Assembly: GCA_016198905.1 (NCBI GenBank) | Contig: JACQHR010000013.1 | Coordinates: 6,153 to 70,152 of the forward strand | Direction: 5' to 3' | DNA length: 64,000 nt | Origin: Candidatus Omnitrophota bacterium | Lineage (GTDB): Bacteria > Omnitrophota > Gorgyraeia > Aquiviventales > Aquiviventaceae | Shown here: piece by piece, positions 4,733-64,000 of the stretch | Layout of the letters: the number at the start of each line of letters is the position of its first letter | How positions within the stretch are numbered: position 1 is the stretch's first letter | Position numbers and translations under genes: made by a program | Notes under the pieces: model-generated | Databases searched by the model: none | What the model saw: the letters and a program-made list of their open reading frames with translations, nothing else | What the model was told of the DNA's origin: nothing

Positions 4733-4756
4733 GCCACGTGGCCACGTGGCCACGTG
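4733..4756. repeat. GCCACGTG x3 perfect 8-bp tandem (self-complementary CCACGTGG core)
   Basis: Read directly, in the pilD-aroC gap. Confidence 0.85.
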
Positions 4757-4781
4757 ACCACTGTGTCTCACTTGTTTCATG

Positions 4782-8179: not shown

Positions 8180-8199
8180 TTCGTCTTCTCCTACGGACA

Positions 8200-8270
8200 T
8201 TTTGGATTTTGGATTTTTGATTTTGGATTGGACTGGTCATCTAAAATCCAAAATCGAAAATCTGAAATGC
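8200..8270. repeat. inverted heptamer arrays (TTTTGGA / AAAATCC) forming a hairpin
   Basis: Left array at 8200-8232: ttttgga ttttgga tttttga ttttgga ttgga. The loop is actggtcatct. Right array at 8243-8270: aaaatcc aaaatcg aaaatct gaaatgc. Confidence 0.85.
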
Positions 8271-8620: not shown

Positions 8621-9712
8621 TCACGACCGGCTCTTCGCCGTCTGCCGTAGGGCGGTTCGCTTCTGGTTCTTACTTCTGCCTACTGCCTTCTGCTGACTGC
8701 TTACTGCTGATTGCTTAGTGCTACTTCCAATCCAGGGCATCATGGCGCGCAGCTTAGCTCCGACTTGCTCGATGAGATGCTGTTCATCCTGCTGCATGAG
8801 TCGCGTGAAATTCGGGCGGCCGGCTTCATGCTCGGCGACCCATTCCTTTGCGAACTGACCCGACTGAATTTCCTTCAGCAATTGCTTCATCGTTTCTTTC
8901 ACGTGAGCGTCGATGACGCGCGGGCCGCAGTGGATGTCGCCCCACTTCGCGGTATCTGAGACGCGCTTGCGCATCCCCTGGATGCCGCTGGCCCAAAACA
9001 TGTCTGTGATCAATTTCAATTCATGCAGACATTCAAAGTACGCCACCTCGGGCTGATAGCCGGCCTCGACGAGCGTTTCGAATCCGGCTTTGATAAGCGC
9101 TGAGGCGCCGCCGCAGAGGACGGCCTGTTCGCCGAAATTGTCGGTCTCCGTTTCCTCTTTGAATGTCGTCTCGAGCACGCCGGCGCGCGTCGCCCCAATC
9201 CCTTTGGCCCATGCCAGCGCGATCGCTTTCGCCTGCCCCGTTGCGTTTTGATGGACCGCGATGAGGGCCGGCACGCCTTTGCCCTCTTGATATTGCGAGC
9301 GAACGAGGCTGCCAGGACCTTTCGGGGCGATCATCACGACGTCGACGCTCTTCGGCGGCTTGATCAACCCGTAGAGGATCGCGAAGCCGTGTGAAAATCC
9401 CAGCGCTTTGCCCGCTTTCAAGTTCGGCTCGATGGACTCCTTGTAAATCTGTCCTTGGAGCATGTCCTGCGCGAGCACGATGATGAGATCGGCTTTCTTC
9501 GTCGCCTCGGCGACAGACATCGGCGTAAACCCGTCGTGTTTCGCCAGGTCGAAGTTTGGTCCGCCAGGGCGCTGAGCGACAATGACCTTCACACCGCTAT
9601 CCCGCAGGTTCAATGATTGGCCGCGCCCTTGGATGCCGTAGCCGATCACCGCCACGGTCTTGCCCTTCAGCGCCTTGAGATCCGCGTCTTTCTCGTAGTA
9701 GATGTTCGCCAT
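8621..9712 (-). CDS. ilvC: ketol-acid reductoisomerase (class I) with a repeat-encoded C-terminal tail
   Basis: [40 protein letters not shown]... The KARI core ends near ...LRAMMPWI. The last ~30 aa ([35 protein letters not shown]) are read from the heptamer array at 8661-8726. Confidence 0.93.
8661..8726. repeat. heptamer array of ~9 units (TNCTGCN family) inside the ilvC 3' end
   Basis: ttctggt tcttact tctgcct actgcct tctgctg actgctt actgctg attgctt agtgcta. Confidence 0.8.
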
Positions 9713-9788: not shown

Positions 9789-10268
9789 TTACTTTTCGAG
9801 CGCGACGCGGCCCGTGCGCACGAGCTTGAGCACGCCATACTTGCGCAGTTCGTCGACGAGCTGATCGAGCGTCTTGGTGTCCCCGGCCACTTCGACCACC
9901 ACGGACTGGTCGGTGGCGTGGGCTACCTTGGCGCCATAGCGCTGGGTGAGCGCTTCGAGCTTGGCCAGGGCAGCCCCGTTGACCTTCACCTGGGCCAGCA
10001 AGAGCTCGCGGTCGATGAAGCGGCCCTCCTTCATCTCCTGCACCTCGATCACGTCGATGAGGCGATTGAGCTGATTCTTCACCTGCTCGAGCTTCACCGC
10101 ATCGGCATCGACGACGATCGTCATGCGCGAGATCGTGGGGTCTTCCGTCGCGCTCACGGTCAAGGAGTCGATGTTGAACCCGCGCGCGCTGATGAGATTC
10201 GCCACGCGCGAGAGCACGCCGAAGTGATTCTCAACCAAACAGGAGATCGTGTGTTTTTCGCTCATCAC
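9789..10268 (-). CDS. ilvN: acetolactate synthase small (regulatory) subunit
   Basis: 159 aa. ACT domain HTISCLVENHFGVLSRVANLISARGFNIDSLTV. It lies adjacent to ilvB. Confidence 0.9.
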   Translation of the reverse strand: MMSEKHTISCLVENHFGVLSRVANLISARGFNIDSLTVSATEDPTISRMTIVVDADAVKLEQVKNQLNRLIDVIEVQEMKEGRFIDRELLLAQVKVNGAALAKLEALTQRYGAKVAHATDQSVVVEVAGDTKTLDQLVDELRKYGVLKLVRTGRVALEK

Positions 10269-10272
10269 ATCT

Positions 10273-10335
10273 CACGTGCATACGTGCAGATGCGCATACG
10301 TCCGCACGTCTACACGCCCACACGTCTGCACGTCG
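10273..10335. repeat. octamer array of 8 units (CACGTCTN family)
   Basis: cacgtgca tacgtgca gatgcgca tacgtccg cacgtcta cacgccca cacgtctg cacgtcgt. It lies in the ilvB-ilvN gap. Confidence 0.8.
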
Positions 10336-12093
10336 TTACCCAAGACTGAGCTTAGATTCTTCATCCGGGGTGGCGCGACGATGCTGCGGCACGCCGCCGT
10401 CTTTGCTCAGCATGGCGTAGGTGCCCAGCATTTGGAAGTGCGGCTTGCCGGGCGCGATCATGGGCCACACGTTTTCTTTTTGTTCCACGAGGAAGTCGAT
10501 GATGGTCGGACGGTCGGCGACACTCATGGCTTGTTCAATGGCCGGCCGCACGCCTTCTTTCTTATCCACCCGCAGGCCCACACAGCCATAGGCCTCGGCC
10601 AGCTTCACGAAGTCCACGACGTTCAGCTCCGAAGCCGCATAGCGGCTCTCGTAGAACTGGTCTTGCCACTGGCGCACCATGCCGTGGAATTGGTTGTTCA
10701 TGATGGCGATCTTGATGGGCAGGCGCTGCTTCGCGGCGGTGGCCAATTCCATCGATGTCATCTGGAAGCTGCCGTCGCCATCGATGTCCCACACCACGTC
10801 TTTCGGGCGGCCGAATTGCGCGCCGATGGCCGCCGGCAAACCAAAGCCCATGGTCCCTAAACCCCCGCTGGTGATGAGCGAACGCGGCTTGTTGAACTGG
10901 TAGTACTGCGCCGTCCACATCTGGTGCTGGCCCACCCCGGTAGCGATCACGGCGTCGCCGCGCGTCGCCTCGGCAATCTGCTGGATGATGTACTGCGGCA
11001 AGAGGCGGCCTTTTTCGCGGTACGTCAGCGGGTACTGGCGCTTCATCTCGGCCAGTTGCTTCAGCCAATCCGACGTATCAGCGCCCTTCACCAGTTTGTT
11101 CAGCTCGATCAAGACCTGGCGCACATCGCCCACCACCGCGTAATCCACGCGCACGGTCTTGTTGATGGACGAGGGGTCCACGTCGATGTGGATCTTCTTG
11201 GCGTGGCGCGCGAACTCATCGGGCTTGCCTGTCACCCGGTCATCGAAGCGAGCGCCGATGCCGATCAGCAAATCGCATTCGGCCACGGCCAGGTTGGTGT
11301 ATTCGAAGCCGTGCATGCCCAGCATGCCCAGACTCAGCGGATCCGACTCGGGAAACGCCCCTAAGCCCAGCAAGCTCGTGGTCACCGGCGCTTTGAGGGT
11401 CTTGGCCAACTGCAGCAGCTCGGCCGAGGCCCCGCTATGAATCACTCCGGCGCCCACGTAAATAATGGGTTTCTTGCTCTTGGCTATCGCCTCAGCCGCT
11501 GCGCGCACTTGCGCCATGTTGATCGCAGGTGCCGCTTGCAGCTTGTAGCCGCGGATGTTCACCTGCTTAGGATACTCGAACTCAGCTTCGTTCACCGTCG
11601 AGTCCACCGGCAGATCAATCAGCACCGGGCCAGGTCGTCCGGTGGCCGCGATATGGAAGGCCTCGCGCACCACGCGAGCCATGTCGCGCACGTCCTTCAC
11701 CAGGTAGCTGTGCTTGGTCACCGGACGCGTGATGCCGATGGTGTCGGCTTCTTGAAACGCATCATTGCCGATGACCGAGGTGCGCACCTGGCCGGTGAGT
11801 GCCACGATGGGAATCGAGTCCATATAGGCCGTGGCCAAGCCGGTTACCAGGTTGGTAGCACCCGGACCGGACGTGGCCAGACACACGCCCACCTTGCCCG
11901 AGGCGCGGGCGTAGCCGTCGGCCATATGCGAGGCCCCCTGCTCATGGGCCGTCAGCACGACCTTAATCGGGGATTGGTAGAGCGCGTCGAACGTCGGCAG
12001 GTTGACCCCGCCGGGGATGCCGAAGACCGTCTCGACACCCTCGCGCTGGAGGCATTCGATCAAGATTTGGGCGCCTTTGAGTTTTGTCGTCAT
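10336..12093 (-). CDS. ilvB: acetolactate synthase large (catalytic) subunit
   Basis: 585 aa. ThDP enzyme: GAQILIECLQREGVETVFGIPGG, and the ThDP motif GLGTMGFGLPAAIGA...DGDGSFQM..NN. Confidence 0.93.
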   Translation of the reverse strand: MTTKLKGAQILIECLQREGVETVFGIPGGVNLPTFDALYQSPIKVVLTAHEQGASHMADGYARASGKVGVCLATSGPGATNLVTGLATAYMDSIPIVALTGQVRTSVIGNDAFQEADTIGITRPVTKHSYLVKDVRDMARVVREAFHIAATGRPGPVLIDLPVDSTVNEAEFEYPKQVNIRGYKLQAAPAINMAQVRAAAEAIAKSKKPIIYVGAGVIHSGASAELLQLAKTLKAPVTTSLLGLGAFPESDPLSLGMLGMHGFEYTNLAVAECDLLIGIGARFDDRVTGKPDEFARHAKKIHIDVDPSSINKTVRVDYAVVGDVRQVLIELNKLVKGADTSDWLKQLAEMKRQYPLTYREKGRLLPQYIIQQIAEATRGDAVIATGVGQHQMWTAQYYQFNKPRSLITSGGLGTMGFGLPAAIGAQFGRPKDVVWDIDGDGSFQMTSMELATAAKQRLPIKIAIMNNQFHGMVRQWQDQFYESRYAASELNVVDFVKLAEAYGCVGLRVDKKEGVRPAIEQAMSVADRPTIIDFLVEQKENVWPMIAPGKPHFQMLGTYAMLSKDGGVPQHRRATPDEESKLSLG

Positions 12094-17412: not shown

Positions 17413-18381
17413 TTACTTTCCGATGAGATTCAGCCATTTCTCGCGCGCCACCGCCGCGACAAGGCGCGGGCTGACGAACTGTTCCAGCGAATCGCGCAGC
17501 GCCACGAGCTCGAACACCGTGTCCAGGCACCGATCCAGATCCATGCCGCGGACCTGCCGGCGAAGCGCGACAGCGTGTCCTGCGTGCGCGATGTACGCCG
17601 TCTCGCTCGTCGCCGTCACCGCCAGATCGCGCAGCCAGCGCATCATCCCGTCCAGCAACTGGGCGACCCCTTCGCGCGACTCCGGCAAGGGACGCTCAAA
17701 CCATGCGGGAGGCGCATCGCTTCCCAGCAACGACACCCACTGATCATACGTGCTCCAACGATCCGCCAATGCGAGCGCCTCTGAGGCGCTGCCTCCTGAC
17801 AGCGACGCGATGGCGGTGGCGGTTGGTTCGTCGCATCCTTTCTGCGTGATCAGGATCTGCTTAACCACGTCAGCAGGAAGCGGCCGGCACCGGATGAGCT
17901 GGCAGCGCGAGACGATGGTGGGCAGACACGCCGAGAATTGCGCCGTCGTAAGGATGAAGCGGGTGTGCGCGGAGGGCTCCTCCAATACTTTCAATAAACT
18001 GTTCGCCGCTTCTTCAGTCAGTCGCTCCGCTCCTTCGAGGATCGCCACCTGAAACGCCGCGCTGTAGGGCCGCAGGGCCACGCGGCCGATCACGTGCCGG
18101 ATCATGTCGATCTTGATCTGATCCGACGCGCCCCCCGCAACGACGCTGTGCACGTCGGGATGCGTGCCCCGCGCAATCTGCCGGCAGACCGTACACGCAT
18201 CACACGGTCGATTGCCTGCTCCCGTGCAATTCAGCGCTTTCGCCATCTCGAAGGCGAGGCGGCGCTTGCCGACTCCGTCCGGGCCGGCGAAGAGATAGGC
18301 GTGGGCCACTCGCTCATCCTGCAGATGGGTCTTGAGCAGCTCGATGACCCGTTCTTGTCCGAGAATGTCGCTCCACGCCAT
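17413..18381 (-). CDS. holB: DNA polymerase III subunit delta'
   Basis: HAYLFAGPDGVGKRRLAFEMAKALNC...CDACTVCRQI, and 322 aa. It sits next to tmk, as in many bacteria. Confidence 0.85.
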   Translation of the reverse strand: MAWSDILGQERVIELLKTHLQDERVAHAYLFAGPDGVGKRRLAFEMAKALNCTGAGNRPCDACTVCRQIARGTHPDVHSVVAGGASDQIKIDMIRHVIGRVALRPYSAAFQVAILEGAERLTEEAANSLLKVLEEPSAHTRFILTTAQFSACLPTIVSRCQLIRCRPLPADVVKQILITQKGCDEPTATAIASLSGGSASEALALADRWSTYDQWVSLLGSDAPPAWFERPLPESREGVAQLLDGMMRWLRDLAVTATSETAYIAHAGHAVALRRQVRGMDLDRCLDTVFELVALRDSLEQFVSPRLVAAVAREKWLNLIGK

Positions 18382-18387
18382 TTATGA

Positions 18388-18422
18388 AGCGACAAGCGAC
18401 ACGTGACACGCGACACGTACGA
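18388..18422. repeat. heptamer array of 5 units (NGCGACA family)
   Basis: agcgaca agcgaca cgtgaca cgcgaca cgtacga. It lies in the tmk-holB gap. Confidence 0.75.
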
Positions 18423-18458
18423 ATGCGCCCGCGAATTCCCACCGCTGCATCGTCGGTC

Positions 18459-19082
18459 TCATGGGTGTATGCGTTTCATGATGAGAGATTCGAGTTGCGC
18501 GCGAACCGCGTCCACAGACTTGGACGCATCCACGATGACGACGCGCCGAGGGTCTCGCCGAGCCAGCTGCAGGTACCCGCGCCGCACCTGCTGATGGAAC
18601 TGCCGCGTCTTGCGTTCCATCCGGTCGTGCGACCGGCGCAGCCTGGCGAACCCTTGCGCCGTCGGGAGATCTAACACGATCGTCAGGTGCGGCATCACCC
18701 CATGAATGGCGTGACGGCCGAGCCGGTCAAGCCACGGCACATGCACGCCGCCGCCGTAGCCTTGATAGACGACCGTGGAGTCATGGAAGCGATCGCAGAC
18801 CACGACGTCGCCCTTGGCTAACGCCGGACGGATGCGCTCTTCCACCAACTGCACGCGCCCGCCGATAAACAAGAGCGCTTCCGCTAACGGCGAGAGGGGA
18901 GTGGTCGTGTGGAGGAGCAATTGGCGCGTCGCGCAGCCCACAGGCGTCGATCCCGGATCTTGCAGCCACACGACCCGGCGCCCCGCGCGCCGAAGCCGCT
19001 GCACCAGCCACCGTGCCTGCGTGGACTTGCCCGATCCCTCCGGGCCTTCCAGCGTGATGAAAAAACCTTTTCTTTCAGACAT
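18459..19082 (-). CDS. tmk: thymidylate kinase
   Basis: GFFITLEGPEGSGKSTQ (P-loop), the DRF motif (CDRFHDST), and 207 aa. Confidence 0.9.
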   Translation of the reverse strand: MSERKGFFITLEGPEGSGKSTQARWLVQRLRRAGRRVVWLQDPGSTPVGCATRQLLLHTTTPLSPLAEALLFIGGRVQLVEERIRPALAKGDVVVCDRFHDSTVVYQGYGGGVHVPWLDRLGRHAIHGVMPHLTIVLDLPTAQGFARLRRSHDRMERKTRQFHQQVRRGYLQLARRDPRRVVIVDASKSVDAVRAQLESLIMKRIHP

Positions 19083-19110
19083 CAGACCTCAGACTGCAGC
19101 ACAACAGACG
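19083..19110. repeat. heptamer array of 4 units (CAGACNN)
   Basis: cagacct cagactg cagcaca acagacg. It fills the whole cysS-tmk gap. Confidence 0.65.
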
Positions 19111-19962
19111 TTACGGCCTACGCCAGACGACGGGGCCGTGAGCCGTGTCTTCAAGGATAAACCCTGCTTCCTGAAACTCTCGACGGATCTGATCCGCGGA
19201 TTGGAAATCCTTGCGCTTGCGTGCGGCTTCCCGCGCGTCGAGCCTTGTGCGCCACTGTGTCGGTAACTCCACAGGCTGCGGCTGGTAGGAGAGAAAGAGC
19301 CCGAGGACGCGGCAGAGCGAGAGCAAGGCATCGGCGTGTTTGACCGCCTCCGCCTCGACGGTGCGACTCAGGTCCACGGCCAACCGATCCAAGACCGCGA
19401 GTGCCGCCGGGGTGTTGAGATCGTCATCCATCGCCCGCTCAAACTGAGCACGCGCCTCGCACGTCTCCAATGGCGAGAGGGTGCTGTTCGTACGCCATGC
19501 TTCGACGCGATGCAGCGCTTCCGCCAATCCGCGCCAGCGGGCCGCCGCCGCTTGCACACTCGGCGCGGAGTAATCGATCGGACTGCGGTAGTGGGCGCCG
19601 AGAAAGAAGATTTTCAGCGCTTCCGCATTGCCCTGGCAATTGTTCAGCGCGTCTTCCACCGTCGTGTAATTCCCCAGCGACTTCGACATCTTCTCGCCAT
19701 TGACGGTGAGCAGGCCGTTGTGCACCCAATAGCGGGCGAACGGCTTACCCGCGGCGACGGCTTGCGCGACTTCGTTCTCGTGGTGCGGGAACACAAGGTC
19801 CACGCCCCCGCCGTGGATGTCGAACTGATCGCCGAGATATTTCGTGCTCATCGCCGAACATTCGATGTGCCAGCCGGGACGCCCAGCACCCCAGGGACTT
19901 TGCCATGATGGCTCGCCGAGTTTCGCCGCTTTCCAGAGCGCAAAATCGAGCGGGTCGTGTTT

Positions 19963-19996
19963 GCCCGCCCCGGCAGTCGCAACAGGCGGGCCGGGG
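19963..19996. repeat. GC-block hairpin, family D-like short copy (inside cysS)
   Basis: GCCCGCCCCGGC-agtcgcaacag-GCGGGCCGGGG. It encodes the extra PGPPVATAGAG just before the conserved DPLDFALWK. Confidence 0.55.
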
Positions 19997-20280
19997 TGCT
20001 CGCCCGGTTCGATGCGAGCGCCGGCTTGCAATTCATCAAGGGTGCGGTTCGACAGCTTCCCATAGCCTTCACACTTTCTGACCGAAAAATACACATCGCC
20101 CTTCGCTTCGTACGCCACCCCTTTGATCAGGAGCGTGGAGATCAGGTCGGTCATCTCCGGCACGACGTGCGCGGTCGCGAGAGGTTCCTTGGTCGGAGGT
20201 TCAATGCCGAAGCGCCGCAACGTCTCGCGATAGCTGGCCAAGTACCGCTGCGACACCTCGGCGCACTTCGCTTTCAAGTC

Positions 20281-20297
20281 GCTGTGTGCTGTGTGCT
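20281..20297. repeat. (GCTGTGT)x2+GCT heptamer repeat at the cysS frame break
   Basis: Read directly. On the coding strand it is GCACACA GCACACA GC. Confidence 0.85.
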
Positions 20298-20585
20298 ATC
20301 TCTTGTCTGGCCTTCTCGATAATCTTGTCATCCACGTCCGTCACGTTGCGCACAAAGTTCACCTGATAGCCGCGAAACGTCAGGTAGCGGCGCAAGACGT
20401 CAAACACGTAGGCGCTGCGCGCATGGCCGATGTGGGGCACGTCGTACACCGTCGGGCCGCACACGTACATCGTCACCGCCGGCGGGTGCAGCGGCGTGAA
20501 GGACTCAATCTTGCGCGTGAGCGTATTGTAGAGCTTCATCTATGATCCGTTCATGGCTCGGCAGCGAGCGGGTCGCCGGCACGGG

Positions 20586-20753
20586 CAGGTCCCGAGCCGG
20601 ACGTCTCGGAGGGTGAGCGGCCATGGTGCCCAGCACTAATTTTCATGCAGCCAACGATAGAAAATTGGTGCTGGGCGAGCGAGCCCGAGAGCCGAGCACC
20701 GGCGGCCACGGTGGGGCCGCCGAGTGCGTGCCGGCGAGGGACGCTGCCCGGGC
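20586..20753. repeat. long structured GC-rich element, family A copy 1 (cysE-cysS gap)
   Basis: It shares a 58-nt identical block with 46178-46235: gagcgagcccgagagccgagcaccggcggccacggtggggccgccgagtgcgtgccgg, at 20677-20734. The conserved 5' part is caggtccYgagccgRacgtctcggaggg. The internal hairpin differs in sequence from copy 2 but keeps its pairing. Confidence 0.8.
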
Positions 20754-20796
20754 CGATCGCGACCCACGATGGATGGACCCGCTGCCAGAGTTAAAA

Positions 20797-21501
20797 TCAC
20801 GAACCTGACTGAGACTTCCGATGCTCTTTCAGGTGCTTCTCGACGGCGTCGATCTCATGCTGCAACGCCTCGAGCCGCTCGGTCAGCGGATCCGGCAGAT
20901 GCGTATGGTCCAGCTTGATCCCCGGGAAGTGCCGGTCCTTGATCCGTGTGATGCGCCCGGGGACCCCGACGACGGTGGAGTGATCCGGCACGTCGCGAAT
21001 CACGACCGCGTTAGCGCCGATCATGGAATCGTTGCCGATGGTGATGTTGCCTAAGACTTTCGCTCCGGCGCCGATGACGACGTTGTTGCCGATTGTGGGA
21101 TGGCGCTTGCCTTTCTCTTTGCCGGTCCCGCCCAGCGTCACACCTTGGAAAAGCGTCACGTTACGGCCGATGACGGTCGTCTCGCCGATCACGACGCCGA
21201 TGCCGTGATCGATGAACAATCCGCGTCCGATCCGCGCGGAAGGATGGATTTCGATGCCGGTCATCCAGCGCGCGATCGTCATCAGCAGCCGCGGAACCAC
21301 GGGGATTTTGACCCGGTCCAACGCATGGGCAAGACGGTAGAACACCACCACGTGCAATCCGGAATACGTCAGGAGCACTTCGACGAGGTTGCGCGCGGCA
21401 GGGTCGCGCTCAAAGCACGCCGTAACCTCCGCGTCGAACGCGACACGGATGACCGTCCCGACGGCGATGAGCAGCGCAAGGATCCAGAAGACCGCCATCA
21501 T
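20797..21501 (-). CDS. cysE: serine O-acetyltransferase
   Basis: [30 protein letters not shown]..., with hexapeptide repeats ([22 protein letters not shown]..., [28 protein letters not shown]). The start is ATG 21501, which overlaps the ispF stop (ATGA). The 314-aa ORF-track version overlaps ispF and is too long. Confidence 0.88.
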
Positions 21502-22022
21502 CTCTTCACTCGCGTACCGCGCGTCATCGTGCGACTCGTTGACGGCGCGACCAGCACGACCACGTGGGCCGCAATCCCCTGCTTGCCGGGGCAGAACGCT
21601 TCGGTCGTCTTCGCCTTGACGGAGACCTGAGCCGCTGAAATGCCCAGCAGGCGGCTGATCGCTCTGGCCATCTGGGCTTTGTATCCGACCAACGTCGGCG
21701 CGTCCGCAATAACGGTGGCGTCGATGTTGCCGATGCGCCACCCGCGGCGCTGCACGCCGGTGCGCGCGGCCTCCACGAACACCCGGCTATCCGCGCGGCG
21801 GTAGCGGGGATCGCTCGAGGGAAACTGCTCGCCGATGTCCGGCGCCCCGATCGCACCGAAGAGCGCATCCGCGAGCGCATGGAGCAGCACGTCCGCGTCG
21901 GAGTGGCCGGAAAGCCCCCGTGCATGCGGCACGGTGATCCCGCCGAGCCGCAGCGGCCGTTTGCCTGCCCCGGAACCGGGGCCGTTGAACCGATGGATGT
22001 CGTAGCCGATGCCGATTCTCAT
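21498..22022 (-). CDS. ispF: 2-C-methyl-D-erythritol 2,4-cyclodiphosphate synthase
   Basis: [12 protein letters not shown]..., [16 protein letters not shown] and DIG. The start is ATG 22022. The longer ORF start lies in the heptamer array. Confidence 0.9.
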
Positions 22023-22027
22023 ATCAT

Positions 22028-22157
22028 CAGCACAAAGCACAAAGCAGACAGCACAACACTTCCGCAGCAATGGTTTGTGGCATGAGATGCGACTGTTTCC
22101 TACTCAAATATGTCATCTACTTTGTGCTTTATGCTTTATGCTTTGTGCTGTGTGCTG
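22028..22157. repeat. inverted heptamer arrays (CAGCACA / CTTTGTG) flanking a ~60-nt spacer
   Basis: Left array at 22028-22058: cagcaca aagcaca aagcaga cagcaca. Right array at 22120-22157: ctttgtg ctttatg ctttatg ctttgtg ctgtgtg. The right arm lies in the ispD 3' end. Confidence 0.85.
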
Positions 22158-22856
22158 GACTCTATGGGACAGTATAGTTTCCGCGAGGATGAGATCATCT
22201 TTTGTCGTGACTTTGATATTGCGCGGATCGCCATGCACCATCCGAACCGGAAACCCGGCGGCTTCGAGGATGGCCGCGTCATCCGGAAATTGCTCGAGCT
22301 GCGATCCCGCCCGCGTCAGCGCCTGCGTGATCCATTCCCGACGGAACACTTGCGGCGTCTGCACCAACCAAAGCGACTCGCGATCCAATGTCAGCCGAAC
22401 ACCCTGTCGCTCATCGACGGCTTTGACGGTCACCGTCGCCGGCAACCCGCACGCCACCGCGCCTTCGCGCCGCGCTGCACGCACGGCGCGTGCGATCACG
22501 TCCGGCGTCACGCAGGGGCGCGCGCCATCATGGATGAGCACCCAGCGCGCCGCGCGCGGCACCACGGCACACCCGCGCGCAACCGAGGCTGCGCGCGAGG
22601 CTCCTCCCACGCATGGCAAAACCGCCTTGGTGATTGCATGCTGCTTGAGAAACGTACGCATCCGCGCTTGCTCGCCTGCGCGTACGACGACGATAATCCA
22701 GCGGATGTCGGGGCTGACTTGCAGAGCCGCCAGCGTGTGGGCCAGCAACGGCCGACCATGAAGCGGCGCGAACAGTTTCGATGGTGATCCGGTAAAACGC
22801 GTGCCGCTGCCGGCCGCCGGCACGACCGCGGCGACGTCCATCGAATGCTGTTTCAT
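22113..22856 (-). CDS. ispD: 2-C-methyl-D-erythritol 4-phosphate cytidylyltransferase
   Basis: VAAVVPAAGSGTRF..., VLIHDGARP and VQTPQVF. An alternative start is ATG 22841. The last ~15 codons lie in a heptamer array. Confidence 0.88.
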   Translation of the reverse strand: MKQHSMDVAAVVPAAGSGTRFTGSPSKLFAPLHGRPLLAHTLAALQVSPDIRWIIVVVRAGEQARMRTFLKQHAITKAVLPCVGGASRAASVARGCAVVPRAARWVLIHDGARPCVTPDVIARAVRAARREGAVACGLPATVTVKAVDERQGVRLTLDRESLWLVQTPQVFRREWITQALTRAGSQLEQFPDDAAILEAAGFPVRMVHGDPRNIKVTTKDDLILAETILSHRVQHTAQSIKHKAQSR

Positions 22857-22960
22857 GTTTCACGTTCCAAGTTTCATGTTGCGGGCAACAAACGCCGAAG
22901 CTTTGATTCCCTACCCTGTCAACTTCGAACCTGAAACCTGAAACCTGAAACTTGGAACAT
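22850..22960. repeat. inverted heptamer arrays (GTTTCAT / GAAACCT)
   Basis: Left array at 22850-22884: gtttcat gtttcac gttccaa gtttcat gttgcgg. Right array at 22926-22960: cgaacct gaaacct gaaacct gaaactt ggaacat. Confidence 0.8.
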
Positions 22961-22961
22961 T

Positions 22962-23975
22962 TTATCGTTTTGGCGCCGGAGCCCCGTCCGGCCTGACGAA
23001 CACCATGCGCCCGGCAGAAGTCTGCAGGACGCTGGTCACAATTCCGCGGATGCTCTGGCCGATGAGCGCACGCCCGTTCTCGACCACGACCATCGTCCCG
23101 TCATCGAGATATGCCACCGCTTGGTGGTGTTCTTTGCCTTCTTTGATAGGCTTGACTTCCAACGCTTCGCCCGGCAGCACCACCGGCCGCAGCGCTTGGG
23201 CGAGCTCGTTGACATTGAGCACGCTGACGTTTTGAAACTCCGCGACCTTGTTCAAATTGAAATCATTGGTGATCACGCGGGCGCTGAGCACCTGGGCGAG
23301 CTTCACAAGCTTCGCATCGGTTTCGGGAATCCCCGGCAGGTCTTCTTCATGGATGCGCACATCCACCGTCGTGAGCTGCCGCAGTTGATTGAGCACTTCG
23401 AGCCCTCGCCGTCCGCGGCTGCGCTTGATGGGATCCGCGCTGTCTGCGACGGTCTGAAGCTCCTTCAACACGAACCGGGGAATTAGCAGGCGGCCTTCAA
23501 TGAAGCGCGTCTTGCATAAATCCAAGAGGCGGCCGTCAATGATCGCGCTGGTATCGACCAACGACGCGTCTTCCCCGCGATCGTGGCGCGCCAGCCGCAC
23601 GTACGGGATGATCACGCTGAACTCATCCCGCCCGCGCAGCGCCATGGCCATGCCGAGGTAGCAGAATGCCCACGTGAGGGACACGCGAAGGCCGCCCGCC
23701 GTAATCGGATCAAACGGCAGCAGCGTGATCGCATCGGCCACCAGCTTGGCCATGATGAGCCCAAAGAGCATGCCGAAGACCGCCGCCGAGGAACCGCGGA
23801 CCGACACGCGCCCGATGCGATGGATCGCCGCTTCCAGCAGGACCAGCAGCGCTCCGGCCCCCGCAGCTAGTGGAATACGCAACCAGAATGGCCAGCCCTC
23901 TGCTTGCCCGATAAACTGCGATCCAAACAGCGCACTGATGATGACAAAGCCGACCCGAACGAATCGTAAATCCAT
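22962..23975 (-). CDS. membrane-anchored PIN + TRAM domain protein (YacL-like)
   Basis: 337 aa. It has N-terminal TM helices, a PIN domain (LVDTSAIIDGRL...ITNDFNLNKVA) and a C-terminal TRAM-like beta domain. It sits between radA and ispD, as B. subtilis yacL does. Confidence 0.75.
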   Translation of the reverse strand: MDLRFVRVGFVIISALFGSQFIGQAEGWPFWLRIPLAAGAGALLVLLEAAIHRIGRVSVRGSSAAVFGMLFGLIMAKLVADAITLLPFDPITAGGLRVSLTWAFCYLGMAMALRGRDEFSVIIPYVRLARHDRGEDASLVDTSAIIDGRLLDLCKTRFIEGRLLIPRFVLKELQTVADSADPIKRSRGRRGLEVLNQLRQLTTVDVRIHEEDLPGIPETDAKLVKLAQVLSARVITNDFNLNKVAEFQNVSVLNVNELAQALRPVVLPGEALEVKPIKEGKEHHQAVAYLDDGTMVVVENGRALIGQSIRGIVTSVLQTSAGRMVFVRPDGAPAPKR

Positions 23976-35896: not shown

Positions 35897-37405
35897 TCAT
35901 GAGATTTCAGGTTTCAGTAAAGGAAAAAGAATGACGTCCTTGATCGAGGGTTGGTTCAGCAGAATCATCGCGAGGCGGTCGACGCCGACGCCAAGGCCGC
36001 CGGCCGGCGGCATGCCGTATTCGAGCGCCGTCACAAAGTCTTCATCAATCACCCGCCTTTGGGGCGTGGGGCGTGGGGCGTGGGGCGTGGGAGAACTGGT
36101 TTTCCCTCGCCCCCCGTCTCCCGCCCCCTGCCCCTCTAGCTGAGCTTCGAATCGGCGACGCTGCTCGATCGGATCATTCAACTCGGAGTACGCATTCGCC
36201 ACTTCCATGCCGCCGATGTAGAGCTCAAAACGCTCCGTGATGAGTGGATTGTCAGGTTTGCTCTTGGCTAGCGGCGACAACTCCGTCCAATAATCCACCA
36301 CGAAGAGCGGTTTCGATTTCGTCTTCGGGGAAAAGAGCTGCTCGGTCAGTCGGACGAGTTGGGAGCGGTTCAGTTCCTTGACCTGCATCCCCTTGCGCTG
36401 CAGGACCGTTTGCATCTCTTCGAGCGAGGACTGCGGCGTCAACCCCATCTCTTCCATCGCCTTGGCGAATGACACGCGCTCCCACGGCGGTGTGAGATCA
36501 ATCGGCTGACCTTGATACTCACATTGGAGCGAGCCGACGAGCGTTTTGGCCGCGTCGCAAATGAGCTCCTGCACGAAGTCCATCATGAACGCGCAGTCTT
36601 GATACGCCGCGTACGCCTCGAGCATCGTGAATTCCGGATTGTGCTGCGTCGAGAGGCCTTCATTGCGAAAGCAGCGGTTGATTTCATACACGCGTTCCAG
36701 TCCTCCAACGAGCAGCTTCTTGAGATACAGCTCCGGCGCGAGGCGCAGATAGAAATCCGCATCGAGCGCGTTGTGATGCGTGACGAACGGCTCGCCCGCG
36801 GCGCCCCCGGCGATAGGATGCATCATCGGCGTTTCGACTTCGAGAAATCCACGGCGCTCCAGCGTGCGCCGCAGCGACGCCAGCAACTGGCTGCGCTGGA
36901 AGAAGACTTTCCGTACCGGCTCATTGGCGATGAGATCAAGATACCGCTGGCGATAGCGGATCTCGACGTCCTTGAGCCCATGCCACTTCTCCGGCATCGG
37001 TCGCAAGGCCTTCGCCAATATGGTAAAGCGATCCACCTGCACCGTCACTTCATCGGTCTTCGTGCGAAAGAGCGCGCCGGTCACTCCGATAATGTCGCCC
37101 AGGTCCAGCTCGCCGAAAAGTGTAAACGCCTCATCGCCCACGCGATCCTTCTTGACACACATCTGAATCTTGCCGCTGGCGTCCCGCAGATCGGCGAAGT
37201 TCAGTTTGCCCATCGTCCGTTTGGCGCAGAGGCGGCCGGCCGTGCTAACCGACTTGCCCTCGGTGAACCCCGCCACCAACGTCTGGATCGGCTCAGCCTT
37301 CGGAAACGCGGCTCCATACGGAACGATTCCTTGCCGCTCGAGCGCATGCAGCTTGTCGCGGCGGGTGCGGGCTTGTTCGTTCAGATCAGGGTCGTTGTAA
37401 GCCAT
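35897..37405 (-). CDS. lysS: lysine--tRNA ligase (class II), carrying a palindromic-element insertion
   Basis: MAYNDPDLNEQARTRRDKL..., an OB-fold, and class II motifs (FLEVETPMMH; CFRNEG; GGLGVGVDRLAM). The start is ATG 37405. The insert GQGAGDGGRGKTSSPTPHAPRPTPQRR lies between RFEAQ and IDEDFVTALEYGMPP. Confidence 0.92.
   Translation of the reverse strand: MAYNDPDLNEQARTRRDKLHALERQGIVPYGAAFPKAEPIQTLVAGFTEGKSVSTAGRLCAKRTMGKLNFADLRDASGKIQMCVKKDRVGDEAFTLFGELDLGDIIGVTGALFRTKTDEVTVQVDRFTILAKALRPMPEKWHGLKDVEIRYRQRYLDLIANEPVRKVFFQRSQLLASLRRTLERRGFLEVETPMMHPIAGGAAGEPFVTHHNALDADFYLRLAPELYLKKLLVGGLERVYEINRCFRNEGLSTQHNPEFTMLEAYAAYQDCAFMMDFVQELICDAAKTLVGSLQCEYQGQPIDLTPPWERVSFAKAMEEMGLTPQSSLEEMQTVLQRKGMQVKELNRSQLVRLTEQLFSPKTKSKPLFVVDYWTELSPLAKSKPDNPLITERFELYIGGMEVANAYSELNDPIEQRRRFEAQLEGQGAGDGGRGKTSSPTPHAPRPTPQRRVIDEDFVTALEYGMPPAGGLGVGVDRLAMILLNQPSIKDVILFPLLKPEIS
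36061..36134. repeat. GC-rich palindromic element, family C copy 2 (inside lysS)
   Basis: (GGGGCGT)x4 GGGAGAACTGGTTTTCCCTCGCCCCCCGTCTCCCGCCCCCTGCCCC. The centre GGTTTTCCCTCGCCCC is shared with the lnt copy. The left arm has become a perfect heptamer tandem. Confidence 0.85.
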
Positions 37406-37490
37406 GGAGGAGCTTTGATTATACGGCGTCGTCGAGCAACGTGTCAAAGCGAGAAGGTATTCTGTCGAAAACTCCTTCTGATAGCTACCG

Positions 37491-37598
37491 GGGCCACGGG
37501 TGACCCGGCGACGGGTCCCCTGCGCCGCCCGCAGAACCAGCGCGATAGTCGCTGGGCGAGGACGGCGCAGGGTGGCGCCGGGGCAGGCCCCGTGGCCC
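37491..37598. repeat. long hairpin element, family B copy 1 (lnt-lysS gap)
   Basis: The outer stem is GGGCCACGGG (37491-37500) / CCCGTGGCCC (37589-37598). The nested stems are CCCCTGCGCCG/CGGCGCAGGG and CCAGCG-cgatagt-CGCTGG. The 39-nt apex at 37527-37565 is identical to 46691-46729. Confidence 0.85.
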
Positions 37599-37605
37599 GC
37601 GAACG

Positions 37606-39297
37606 TTATCGAAGACGTGCTATCATCCAACCGAGGATGCCGATGAGGCAAGCCCAAGCGAACCAGTCACCCCAACGCTCATAGAGGGTGCGGGTGTAGC
37701 TCAGCGGGACATCACACGCGTGCGTGCCGGCAATGAAGAGTTCGCGACCCTGTTCATCGTGAACGCTTCCAAGAATGCGACCGGCGGGATCGATGCAGCC
37801 GGACCATCCCGTGTTGGCCGCGCGCACCACCGGCACCCGCAGCTCCACCGCGCGGAAGATCGAGGTCTGCGCGTGCTGATAGGCCGCCGCCGTCGGCCCG
37901 AACCACGCGTCGTTGGTGATGACCACCAGCATCCGCGCCCCTTCTTGGACAAACCGTCGCGCAAGCTCAGGAAACACATCTTCGAAACAGATGAGGACGC
38001 TGAACGGGGGCAAGGGGCGGGAGACAGGAGACGTGGGAAAACCGGTTTTCCCTCGCCCCTCGTCTCTCGCCCCCCGCCCCAGCACATCAGCTTCTTGCTC
38101 AATATGAAATACGGTGTGGTGATGCCCACGATCGAAGTCGCCGATCGGCGGCAACAGGCGGCGCAGCCACGGCAAGGTGCGTTCAAAGGGCACGAACTCG
38201 CCGAACGGGACCAGGTGCAGCTTGTCATAGCGCTGATCGATGACGCCGCGATGATCGACGAGTGCTGCGCTGTTGGTCATCATCCACTCCACGCCATCAA
38301 GATGTCCCATTGGAGCGCCCACCAACAGGGGTGCTTTCACCGACTTGGCAAGCGCAAAGACGCGCTGCGTGATCTCCTCATCGAGCCCGAAATAGCCCGG
38401 CACGGAAGTCTCCGGCCAGACGATGAGATCAGGCTCGGTGCGCGCAGCTTCACGCGTGAGCGTTTCGTACTGCGTCAAGATCCGCTCCTGGAACGCTTCG
38501 TCCCATTTCTCAGTTTGAGGGATGTTGCCCTGCGCCACCGCTACCCTGATCGATGAGGCATCGACGATGCTGCTGATGCGCCACGCGCCGTAGCCAAGCC
38601 CAATGAGGACGAGGATCATGACGCACGCCGCGCGAATAAGAACGGATTGTGTGCGTTTTCCGCCCCCCACCCCCCCGGCCCGCCGATTACTACCGTCGGG
38701 GCGGGCCCGCCCCCTGCCCCAAACTGTCGTGCTGATGTAGTCCGCAATCGCCGCATTCCCCATCACGATCAGGAACGATATCCCCCACGCGCCGGTCAGA
38801 TCTGCGAACTGAATGAGCGGCCGCCACGACGTCTGCGAATACGCCAGCAGATTCCAGCCCATCCCCGTGAGGACGTGGCTGCGCGCAAACTCCAGCGTCA
38901 CCCACAGCGCAGGAATCACAATCAGACTCCGGACACCAGATCTCAGACCACAGACAAACCTACCCTGATGTCTGATGTCTGATGTCTGATGTCTGACGAC
39001 GCACCAGCCGAAGATCCCGAAATAGAGCGCGAGGTACGCGCACAGCACGAGCCACCCGACGACGGTGACATAGATCAGCCACCACATCGAGCCGAGGAAG
39101 AACAGTGCACCGATGAGATACGACCACCAAAACGCCGCGCGCGATGACGTCGTGCGCAACAGCAACAGCCACGGAACGAAAGCAATCCACGCGCACCAGG
39201 GCTGATTGAAATTCGGAAATGACAGGACGAGCAGGATGGCGCTACTGAGCGCCGGCAACAGAGGACGAACGATGCGGGACAAACGACGCGTGGTCAA
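37606..39297 (-). CDS. lnt: apolipoprotein N-acyltransferase, carrying three repeat-derived insertions
   Basis: N-terminal multi-TM region plus a CN-hydrolase domain with E/K/C motifs (VWPETSVPG; YDKLHLVPFGE; VLICFED). The suggested start is TTG 39297, which overlaps the upstream stop (TTGA). The ORF-track Met at 39393 would overlap the upstream gene by 100 nt. Confidence 0.85.
   Translation of the reverse strand: MTTRRLSRIVRPLLPALSSAILLVLSFPNFNQPWCAWIAFVPWLLLLRTTSSRAAFWWSYLIGALFFLGSMWWLIYVTVVGWLVLCAYLALYFGIFGWCVVRHQTSDIRHQGRFVCGLRSGVRSLIVIPALWVTLEFARSHVLTGMGWNLLAYSQTSWRPLIQFADLTGAWGISFLIVMGNAAIADYISTTVWGRGRARPDGSNRRAGGVGGGKRTQSVLIRAACVMILVLIGLGYGAWRISSIVDASSIRVAVAQGNIPQTEKWDEAFQERILTQYETLTREAARTEPDLIVWPETSVPGYFGLDEEITQRVFALAKSVKAPLLVGAPMGHLDGVEWMMTNSAALVDHRGVIDQRYDKLHLVPFGEFVPFERTLPWLRRLLPPIGDFDRGHHHTVFHIEQEADVLGRGARDEGRGKTGFPTSPVSRPLPPFSVLICFEDVFPELARRFVQEGARMLVVITNDAWFGPTAAAYQHAQTSIFRAVELRVPVVRAANTGWSGCIDPAGRILGSVHDEQGRELFIAGTHACDVPLSYTRTLYERWGDWFAWACLIGILGWMIARLR
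38006..38080. repeat. GC-rich palindromic element, family C copy 3 (inside lnt; 75 bp)
   Basis: GGGGGCAAGGGGCGGGAGACAGGAGACGTGGGAAAACCGGTTTTCCCTCGCCCCTCGTCTCTCGCCCCCCGCCCC. This is an imperfect palindrome centred on AACCGGTT. Confidence 0.85.
38660..38720. repeat. GC-block palindromic element, family D copy 2 (inside lnt)
   Basis: CCGCCCCCCACCCCCCCGGCCCGCC-gattactaccgtc-GGGGCGGGCCCGCCCCCTGCCCC. Confidence 0.7.
38923..39000. repeat. inverted heptamer arrays (CAGACNN / TGATGTC) inside lnt
   Basis: Left array at 38923-38957: cagactc cggacac cagatct cagacca cagacaa. Right array at 38966-39000: tgatgtc x4 perfect, then tgacgac. The module is 78 nt (26 codons) and the frame stays open. Confidence 0.85.
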
Positions 39298-39935
39298 TAG
39301 CTCGACGAATGTTGCAATTGCTGTTGCGACTTCCAGACGCCATACCCGACGAGCGATCCCCAGATCGCGCCATGCAGCACGCTGAAGTACCACGGCTTAA
39401 ACGCGAGCCACCACCAGAACGATCCGGCGCATCCGCTCACGGCGCCGATCAGGACATGTGTCAGTAACCGCCGGCTCTTCAACAGGCCGCACGCCGCCGC
39501 GAGGAGTACGAACACCGATCCCGCGAGTCCAAAAGCTTGGAAGAGCGTCCACAGCGTTTCGAGCTCGAGCCGAAACGGCCACAGCGCCCGCAGGATGTCT
39601 TCTCGAGACAACCCAGCGATATCGCCAGACCAGAGTTTGACGGAACTGACATAGAGGCTAATCGGAATATAGGGAATCCATCCGCAGATGATGCCGCTGA
39701 CCGGCACACCCACCCATCGCATCCAGAGAGGTTTCTTCGAAAGCCTTGCGGCGAGTCCCACGCCCACGAGGGCCAGCAATGCGCCGTGGGCCGCTCCCGC
39801 CGGCACGATGTGCCAAGTGAACTGCCCACTAAACACGTCCGACGGCACGGGAAACTTGGCATAGCACCACCACGCATTGATCGCCCCACCCACTCCGCCC
39901 ATCAATCCGATCAGACCAAGCGCACGAGCTCTCAT
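39294..39935 (-). CDS. hypothetical multi-pass membrane protein
   Basis: 213-aa ORF with about 6 hydrophobic segments. It is co-directional and tightly packed with its neighbours. I recognise no motif. Confidence 0.5.
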   Translation of the reverse strand: MRARALGLIGLMGGVGGAINAWWCYAKFPVPSDVFSGQFTWHIVPAGAAHGALLALVGVGLAARLSKKPLWMRWVGVPVSGIICGWIPYIPISLYVSSVKLWSGDIAGLSREDILRALWPFRLELETLWTLFQAFGLAGSVFVLLAAACGLLKSRRLLTHVLIGAVSGCAGSFWWWLAFKPWYFSVLHGAIWGSLVGYGVWKSQQQLQHSSSY

Positions 39936-39960
39936 CGGTGGGCCTTATTCCAACCACCCG

Positions 39961-39997
39961 CACGCCAGCACGTCTGCACGTCTACACGTATGCACGG
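39961..39997. repeat. octamer array (CACGTCTN family, same units as 10273-10335)
   Basis: cacgccag cacgtctg cacgtcta cacgtatg cacgg. It lies in the secA-downstream gap. Confidence 0.8.
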
Positions 39998-43198: not shown

Positions 43199-43230
43199 CT
43201 GTGTGCTTTCTGCTTAGTGCTGTGTGCTGG
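43199..43230. repeat. heptamer array (CTGTGTG family) spanning the prfB stop / secA start gap
   Basis: ctgtgtg ctttctg cttagtg ctgtgtg ctgg. Confidence 0.8.
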
Positions 43231-59227: not shown

Positions 59228-59233
59228 TTTTGC

Positions 59234-59374
59234 AGCACTAAGCACACAGCAGACAGCACACAGTAGGAAACTTGAGTGCCAGTGAAATGTGTCGGAAGGA
59301 GCCGTGAGGCTGTCTTAGTTGTCCCCTGTCCACTTTGTGCTTTGTGCTTTCTGCTTTGTGCTTTCTGCTTAACG
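59234..59374. repeat. inverted heptamer arrays (CAGCACA / CTTTGTG) flanking a ~64-nt spacer
   Basis: Left array at 59234-59268: cagcact aagcaca cagcaga cagcaca cagtagg. Right array at 59333-59374: ctttgtg ctttgtg ctttctg ctttgtg ctttctg cttaacg. Confidence 0.85.
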
Positions 59375-63979: not shown

Positions 63980-64000
63980 CAGCACAAAGCAGAAAGCACA
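63980..64000. repeat. start of a heptamer array (CAGCACA family) upstream of leuS, truncated by the window edge
   Basis: cagcaca aagcaga aagcaca. Confidence 0.7.

Follow-up and report, generated by a model that had tools for sequence, protein, structure and literature searches.

Within the window, the 64,000-nt (64-kb) stretch of the Candidatus Omnitrophota contig JACQHR010000013.1 (assembly GCA_016198905.1) analyzed here, the gene for cysteinyl-tRNA synthetase (CysRS), cysS, is split between two open reading frames (ORFs) that meet at a short tandem heptanucleotide repeat. Nearly all genes of the window, including cysS, are on the − strand. The features at the break are as follows.

20201..20539, − strand: N-terminal cysS ORF, 112 aa, with the HIGH motif; PF01406 profile positions 2-75, E = 3.1e-30
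20281..20297, − strand: period-7 run of 17 nt (2.4 units), the site of the frame change; exact GCACACA x2 (coding strand) at 20283-20296
19111..20277, − strand: C-terminal cysS ORF, 388 aa from a TTG at 20277; PF01406 positions 70-299, E = 9.4e-84

The original prediction held that the HIGH ORF (20539..20201) and the KMSKS ORF (20277..19111) lie in different frames and that the gene is broken exactly at (GCACACA)x2; both the sequence and tblastn bear this out. On the coding strand the junction reads GAG ATA GCA CAC AGC ACA CAG CGA CTT GAA. With the repaired CysRS described below as the tblastn query, one high-scoring segment pair (HSP) in frame −1 covers residues 1-84 and ends at 20288, and another in frame −2 covers residues 78-473 and starts at 20301; because the two HSPs meet at 20288/20301, the frame change is confined to the heptamer repeat. 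Residues 1-84 of the N-terminal ORF (20288-20539) are true CysRS, HIGH included, and its final 28 residues are an out-of-frame tail closed by the TGA at 20201-20203. The C-terminal ORF holds KMSKS, the zinc ligands, the DALR domain and the anticodon-binding domain (DALR_2 and CysS_C in Pfam, together with an alignment to E. coli CysRS). Its frame is open from 20295, right behind a TAG at 20296-20298, and reads AGA TAG directly ahead of the repeat, again as predicted. The two ORFs overlap at 20201-20277, and no uninterrupted single ORF encodes CysRS. The chance that one heptamer tandem falls within the ~14-nt interval in which the frame switches is ~1%. Exact-protein look-ups found neither ORF on record, a JGI metagenome scan with a strain-specific 13-residue peptide gave no match, and tblastn, in agreement with the earlier statement, found no second cysS within the window.

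Removal of 7 nt from cysS joins the two halves, as had been claimed, into one ORF of 473 aa that matches PF01406 at positions 2-299 of 301 (E = 3.5e-117), followed by DALR and CysS_C. In pairwise alignment with E. coli CysRS, whose zinc ligands are C28, C209, H234 and E238, the repaired protein keeps the corresponding motifs MYVCG, WHIECS and FPHHENE. It has the features of a class I CysRS: a Rossmann domain with HIGH and KMSKS, the zinc residues, DALR and the anticodon-binding domain. An AlphaFold model (pTM 0.83) predicts a helix at residues 70-80, a five-residue loop at 81-85 and a second helix at 86-107, which places the heptamer site in the inter-helix loop of the Rossmann-fold half. Of 99 homologues that could be scored, 25 have a distance of 15 aa across this region, from DDKII to a conserved Cys, 42 have 22 aa and 3 have 29 aa; with 70 of the 99 in these classes, the loop is quantised in 7-residue (21-nt) steps. 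The −7 product (EIAHSDL) belongs to the 15-aa class. The anatomy and frame arithmetic of the original prediction therefore stand, with the qualification that the loss of one unit is not the sole repair: an addition of 14 nt (two units) also restores the frame and yields the commonest loop class (42 of 99), and the loss of 1 nt restores it arithmetically, with EIAHSTQDLKAKC as product. The latter gives a loop length that is rare (2 of 99 homologues, versus 25 for the −7 product), and we prefer −7 or +14.

Apart from the break, the gene is undamaged. In an alignment with 28 homologues, cysS keeps all 138 invariant columns (34/34 on the N side of the junction and 104/104 on the C side), and at columns that are at least 90% conserved it keeps 97.4%, compared with a homologue mean of 97.8%. 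The lesion must accordingly be very recent. An old pseudogene, one of the forms that the pseudogene option of the original prediction could take, is excluded by the 138/138 invariant residues and by the lack of any substitution at conserved sites.

The loop in which the break falls is variable in related organisms. The best CysRS homologues are 55-66% identical, and the named ones are from metagenome-assembled genomes (MAGs) of Omnitrophota; CysRS similarity and gene order mark the source as a GC-rich Omnitrophota relative. In the alignment with 28 homologues, the stretch from KARQE to DLKAKC varies from 0 to ~20 residues, often with a 7-residue period. At the DNA level, the same loop consists of (AGCACAC)x3 followed by five degenerate units in locus L084 (GCA_964373555.1) and of (AGCAATC)x4 in locus L085; proteins P0101 (ELAHSTQHTAHSNL) and P0073 have the +3-unit form of the GCACACA unit itself. 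A scan of JGI metagenomes anchored on a 13-residue peptide upstream of the loop, and hence independent of the downstream frame, recovered 15 loci, 14 of them readable. At least nine of these loci carry loop arrays, with units GAAGTCG, GGGGCRR, GGAYVCA, CAAGACK, CAGGASR, GCGACAA and GTCCAYA. Both the unit and its copy number differ among L084, L085 and L088-L101. Turnover is fast: a difference of exactly 7 aa is seen between proteins that share 82-85% identity outside the loop, and protein pairs 82-89% identical carry unrelated loop units. In all 14 readable loci cysS is in frame. As these loci were collected blind to the frame, the broken state in the window is neither conserved nor programmed, and selection normally holds the cysS microsatellite in frame.

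Two further features of these loops were observed. In L091, L095 and L098, an insert of ~25 nt (CCCCTCGACTSCGCTCGGGGCAGGC, translated as DPSTPLGAG) lies within the heptamer arrays and may be a small mobile or palindromic element using the cysS loop. The loop array of L092, L099, P0003 and P0017 is built of AAGACKC units, which in P0017 encode an RLKTQDS-type heptad; among those of L092 and L099, the exact unit of the E. coli gene neuO, AAGACTC, occurs once, probably through convergence on a heptamer without a stop codon in any frame.

In the original prediction the heptamer figured as a two-copy repeat standing alone, and the four options offered for the break were left unranked; on the first point it has to be revised. 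Exact heptamer tandems with two or more copies number 25 in the window, compared with 6.3 ± 2.3 expected from 3rd-order Markov simulations, in which the maximum was 12. Tandem Repeats Finder (TRF) reports ~33 period-7 arrays of 2-8 units and varied unit sequence, many of them AGCACAC-like as in cysS; ~22 of the 33 lie between genes or at gene boundaries, and in at least 12 genes the start codon is abutted or overlapped by an array. Loci of the cysS clade contain 2-10 exact heptamer tandems per 10 kb, versus mostly 0-1.4 in ~70 unrelated CysRS loci (at most 48% identity, among the matches listed) that served as a negative control. The cysS repeat is therefore a member of a genome-wide and lineage-wide system of heptanucleotide arrays, to which the loop arrays of the clade also belong.

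We consider it probable that the cysS break arose recently, by strand slippage, as a length variant of a heptamer microsatellite that lies within the gene and evolves fast, and that the assembly happened to capture it. In this scheme, cysS arrays would persist in states that keep the frame, either a baseline of ~1.4 units (loop IAHS) or that baseline plus 3 or 6 units, equivalent to 7 or 14 additional residues in the CysRS loop. The 2.4-unit allele could then have come from the baseline by gain of one unit, or from a 4.4-unit allele like those of relatives by loss of two, with slipped-strand mispairing at replication or repair as the likely mechanism. Everything beyond residue 84 would thereby be put out of frame, leaving an allele that is null or severely hypomorphic, and the population would presumably be sustained by in-frame alleles or by another source of CysRS. 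Two elements of this account are inferred, namely the slippage mechanism and the existence in the population of a functional state other than the 2.4-unit allele. An independent precedent for loss of frame at this loop is provided by locus L102 (ENA ERZ27276474), where the sequence after four GGGGCNN units is GGAC and not GGGAC, so that 1 nt is missing from a G-rich heptamer array.

Several points weigh against this reading. In a natural population, an allele that kills its carriers would be expected to be too scarce to prevail in the assembly, and a two-unit allele in the majority would require a compensation that the slippage account leaves unnamed. A tract of 2.4 units is expected to slip rarely, and heterogeneity by ongoing slippage is not obviously expected of it. 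Contigs of the strain in independent assemblies (see below) end at 20199 and 20717, leaving 20200-20716, junction included, uncovered. Lastly, no in-frame allele turned up in a collection of 5.8 billion proteins, in which no protein exceeds 85% identity to the CysRS N-terminus of the strain or 66% identity to its whole CysRS.

The first alternative is a pure assembly or consensus artefact, in which all cells would be in frame (with 1.4 or 4.4 units) and the 2.4 units would come from the assembler, a polisher or a gap-filler. The otherwise perfect state of cysS would fit such an origin, and broken cysS calls are frequent in public assemblies: a search with the N-terminal 84 residues showed that truncated calls are common, most of them losing the frame outside arrays (P0133, P0181, P0197, P0210 and P0228 lose it outside any array). 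Locus L103 (ENA ERZ27280176 k141_4263483) has a cysS N-terminus with (GGTCACC)x4 which, after DLNAAC, returns to a second, array-free N-terminus; either it is a genuine partial duplication, or alleles of two strains, one array-bearing and one array-free, have been joined as a chimera. Three independent Logan assemblies (SRR12113385, SRR12113390 and SRR12113401), reached through the neighboring genes tmk and cysE, each 100% identical, match the window at 100% over 17881-20199 and 20717-23658. Single runs cover the organism thinly, with contigs of only 1.4-2.9 kb, a circumstance in which an artefact is easier to accept. On the other side, these per-run assemblies reproduce six other heptamer arrays base for base (at 18389, 19075, 22029, 22120, 22849 and 22928), which argues against careless repeat assembly. 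Assembly k-mers are usually longer than the 17-nt array, so that k-mers spanning it and its flanks should come from reads, which makes pure invention by the assembler less likely; likewise, the collapse of a longer array should not be able to fall below about k nt. A clean change by a whole unit is the mark of biological slippage rather than of sequencing error. Nor does a second frameshifted gene occur in the window: the tblastn frameshift screen flags cysS alone, and ~20 large genes are intact by Pfam, which also disposes of a generally indel-ridden assembly. A candidate frameshift at 10268-10336 proved to be the ilvB-ilvN spacer with its octamer arrays. We regard an artefact as unlikely, while the window sequence by itself is compatible with assembly error, with a real population variant and with a recent null allele that has a backup.

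A second alternative is that the null allele is real, fixed and tolerated, with Cys-tRNA supplied by a second cysS, by the SepRS/SepCysS route, or by the host of an obligate symbiont or predator. A real allele would have to be non-lethal to dominate the assembly, and one report (PMC10066038) ascribes host-dependent traits to Omnitrophota. The absence of a second cysS from the window speaks against such a backup, as does the lack of any relaxed-selection damage in the gene: the redundancy, or the break itself, would have to be extremely recent. Relatives, moreover, all keep cysS intact in the order ispD-ispF-cysE-cysS-tmk. Fixation of a tolerated null is on balance improbable.

The broken gene could also still give active enzyme, by a 7-nt ribosomal hop, by a +1 frameshift, or by initiation at the TTG at 20277 to give a two-piece CysRS. 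The codons GCA, CAC and AGC recur identically 7 nt apart, and a hop of the peptidyl-tRNA by one unit from take-off to landing codon would give exactly the baseline CysRS. A Shine-Dalgarno (SD) motif is present at only 3 of 27 well-supported starts in the window, and the array together with TTG 20277 resembles the SD-less, array-preceded starts native to this genome; judged from sequence, this putative initiation site is not obviously incompetent. In the predicted model the split falls in a surface loop between helices. There is also a candidate RNA structure:

20206..20262, − strand: predicted 17-bp RNA stem with 4 G·U pairs, beginning 15 nt after TTG 20277 and ~20 nt after the array

This stem is specific to the window (z = −2.3 here versus about 0 in 10 of 11 relatives) but of marginal significance (z = −1.8, with 8 of 200 shuffles folding equally well). 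Against an active product, no known hop stimulator is present at the array, and the zero-frame codons from 20296 to 20201 contain no +1 slippery motif backed by a stop or rare codon; neither a stop nor a rare codon stands behind the take-off sites, CGA and CTT after the array being moderately rare codons only. Programmed −1 ribosomal frameshifting has the wrong direction, as a +1 or −2 shift is needed. Spontaneous hops and shifts typically occur at well below 1%. The full-length homologues and the 14 DNA-anchored relatives are single ORFs, so that neither a shifted arrangement nor a separately initiated pair, as in a naturally split synthetase, is conserved in any relative, and the N-terminal fragment would bear a nonsense tail of 28 residues. 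The transcriptional or ribosomal slippage listed in the original prediction is thus unsupported as a designed feature, and we judge it very unlikely that the gene as assembled yields active enzyme.

A related and more general idea concerns how the arrays grow. Since alleles differ by three-unit quanta and the units are 7 nt, stepwise slippage must cross the +1 and +2 states, and growth from 1 to 4 units, as the clade implies, would traverse out-of-frame states like the one in the window; this counts in favor of active product from the broken gene. That such states in essential genes are viable intermediates in this lineage is, in our estimation, improbable. Their survival would need low-level 7-nt ribosomal hopping between the identical codons of successive units, initiation at a TTG behind the array, or shelter by other chromosome copies. 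If it were true, the window would be a snapshot of microsatellite growth in core genes, with arrays that might also act as leaders for translation initiation.

Phase variation, in which the heptamer tract would act as an on/off contingency switch for CysRS, for example in bet-hedging into dormancy, was another option of the original prediction. The unit length is not divisible by 3 and the tract lies inside the ORF, so that changes in unit number toggle the frame; this architecture matches that of E. coli K1 neuO (PMC13001214). The relative L102 provides a second out-of-frame allele, albeit by a 1-nt loss that involves no change in units. Known switches of this kind have long tracts with both ON and OFF states common, whereas the tract here has just 2.4 units, and the arrays of the clade, with 1-8 units, are in frame in 14 of 14 loci, for which the probability if the frame were unconstrained is ~(1/3)^14. 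CysRS being essential, an OFF cell could not grow to switch back. In view of the short tract and the strong selection for frame in relatives, we find a contingency switch exceedingly improbable, and a slipped variant of the microsatellite remains the reading that we favor.

By itself, the frameshift poses a routine annotation question, that of a MAG pseudogene or an assembly error; the surrounding heptamer system is the more notable finding. A poorly known lineage has genomes saturated with heptamers, whose arrays repeatedly enter surface loops and tails of essential enzymes and are kept there in 21-nt quanta. This provides a natural system for seeing how selection filters the products of slippage in coding DNA, with the cysS allele as a candidate unfiltered intermediate. 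Array-bearing loops explain odd low-complexity inserts in housekeeping proteins of the lineage, and such genomes will be scored wrongly by gene callers and by estimators of completeness. If the allele were dominant and the cell viable, it would point to an unrecognised rescue route for tandem-repeat frameshifts.

Besides cysS, arrays are found at start codons and, in frame, within other genes of the window. Examples are:

8199-8229: start-codon array
18389-18417: start-codon array, holB
19075-19094: start-codon array, tmk
22849-22880: start-codon array, ispD
43199-43229: start-codon array, secA
59233-59263: start-codon array, uvrD
63981-64000: start-codon array, leuS
8676-8722: in-frame array of 17 protein letters in the C-terminal tail of IlvC
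22120-22156: in-frame array in the C-terminal tail of IspD, translated QHTAQSIKHKAQSR
40095-40162: in-frame array of 25 protein letters in SecA, in the linker ahead of the C-terminal zinc motif
38965-38996: in-frame array in the N-terminal membrane domain of an Lnt-like protein, (CAGACAT)x4.6 = VRHQTSDIRHQ
Lnt-like protein, the other of its two internal in-frame arrays: translated LGRGARDEGRGKTGFPTSPVSRP
LysRS, internal in-frame array: translated EGQGAGDGGRGKTSSPTPHAPRPTPQ
36060-36134, − strand: hairpin insert in LysRS (35897..37657)
38010-38095, − strand: hairpin insert in the Lnt-like gene (37606..39393)

The start-codon arrays may be SD-independent translation leaders, or mere filling of operon spacers. 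In the LysRS and Lnt-like hairpin inserts, a G-rich heptamer array is separated from a complementary C-rich one by a short spacer (GGGAAAACC/GGTTTTCCC); the inserts are in frame, translate to GRG…GRGKT(S/G)…PT.P..RP, form strong hairpins (z = −4.4 and −3.9 for the pair) and look like one element type in two essential genes. Some spacers, such as that between ilvB and ilvN, contain period-8 arrays (10274-10334, 39960-39996 and 4733-4761), whose units ACGTGCAT, CACGTCTA, GCACGTCT and GCCACGTG make up a second, rarer repeat class with a common CACGT core. The cysE-cysS spacer (20540-20796, 257 nt) is among the few without a heptamer array; Rfam finds nothing there, and Rfam and tRNA scans of the whole window are likewise empty.

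The immediate neighbors of cysS are:

20797..21501, − strand: cysE-like hexapeptide-repeat acetyltransferase, 234 aa from an ATG at 21501, upstream of cysS
18459..19082, − strand: thymidylate kinase (tmk), downstream of cysS; protein and DNA identical in the three Logan assemblies

The gene order ispD-ispF-cysE-cysS-tmk-holB-metG-…-tsaE-tsaB is common to the window, L084 and L085. After tsaB, L084 (16546-18957) and L085 (18636-21509) have giant genes of 3908 and 9662 aa, respectively, and the window has ilvB-ilvN-ilvC.

The broken cysS and the arrays around it can be compared with several known systems. As in prfB +1 frameshifting and T4 gene 60 bypassing, there are two overlapping ORFs, the downstream one in the +1 frame, and matched take-off and landing codons; unlike in these systems, the shift is not conserved, no slippery codon stands ahead of a stop or rare codon, and no known stimulator is rightly placed. 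Rickettsia palindromic elements (RPEs) are mobile elements of 100-150 nt with conserved sequence. The heptamer arrays resemble them in that repetitive DNA of selfish or slippage origin is tolerated in essential proteins by way of surface loops and a kept frame, and differ in being short, grown in place and built of lineage-specific units.

In E. coli K1, the CUS-3 prophage O-acetyltransferase gene neuO has an AAGACTC repeat of 3-53 units in its 5' coding region; a complete translation product requires a multiple of three units, units are gained and lost by strand slippage, and 65.6% of genomes are OFF (PMC13001214). The cysS locus shares with neuO a heptanucleotide tandem within the ORF and a full protein only in three-unit (7-residue) steps. 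In contrast to neuO, an accessory, prophage-borne gene for surface modification, cysS belongs to the essential core, has 1-8 units and is in relatives essentially always in frame. Given that neuO is largely OFF and the cysS relatives are in frame, the out-of-frame cysS of the window is an exception under purifying selection and not one arm of a switch.

The closest parallel is with the long simple sequence repeats (SSRs) of bacteria. According to Mrázek et al. 2007, as cited in PMC4679880 and PMC4692102, heptanucleotide arrays form the most abundant class among the long SSRs of many bacteria; they lie mostly between genes, and slippage of the polymerase is given as their cause. Described cases are the cyanobacterial STRR, GGGAATC in Xanthomonas, GGGGAYT in Nostoc and TAACTGA in Beggiatoaceae. 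We found no reports in the literature on heptamer repeats in Omnitrophota, nor any that mention the three SRR accessions. The arrays of the window are of the same class: head-to-tail period-7 tandems of 2-8 units, over-represented genome-wide and mainly in intergenic, mostly co-directional spacers near start and stop codons, with length and sequence that vary among close relatives, occasional inverted pairs that form hairpins, and a proposed origin by slippage. They differ in having many unit sequences with no single favored heptamer, and in entering, as in-frame three-unit quanta, the loops and tails of CysRS, LysRS, SecA, IlvC, IspD and Lnt. With its dense spacers, three-unit inserts and fast turnover in the CysRS loop, the heptamer system appears to be an undescribed form of this known repeat class.

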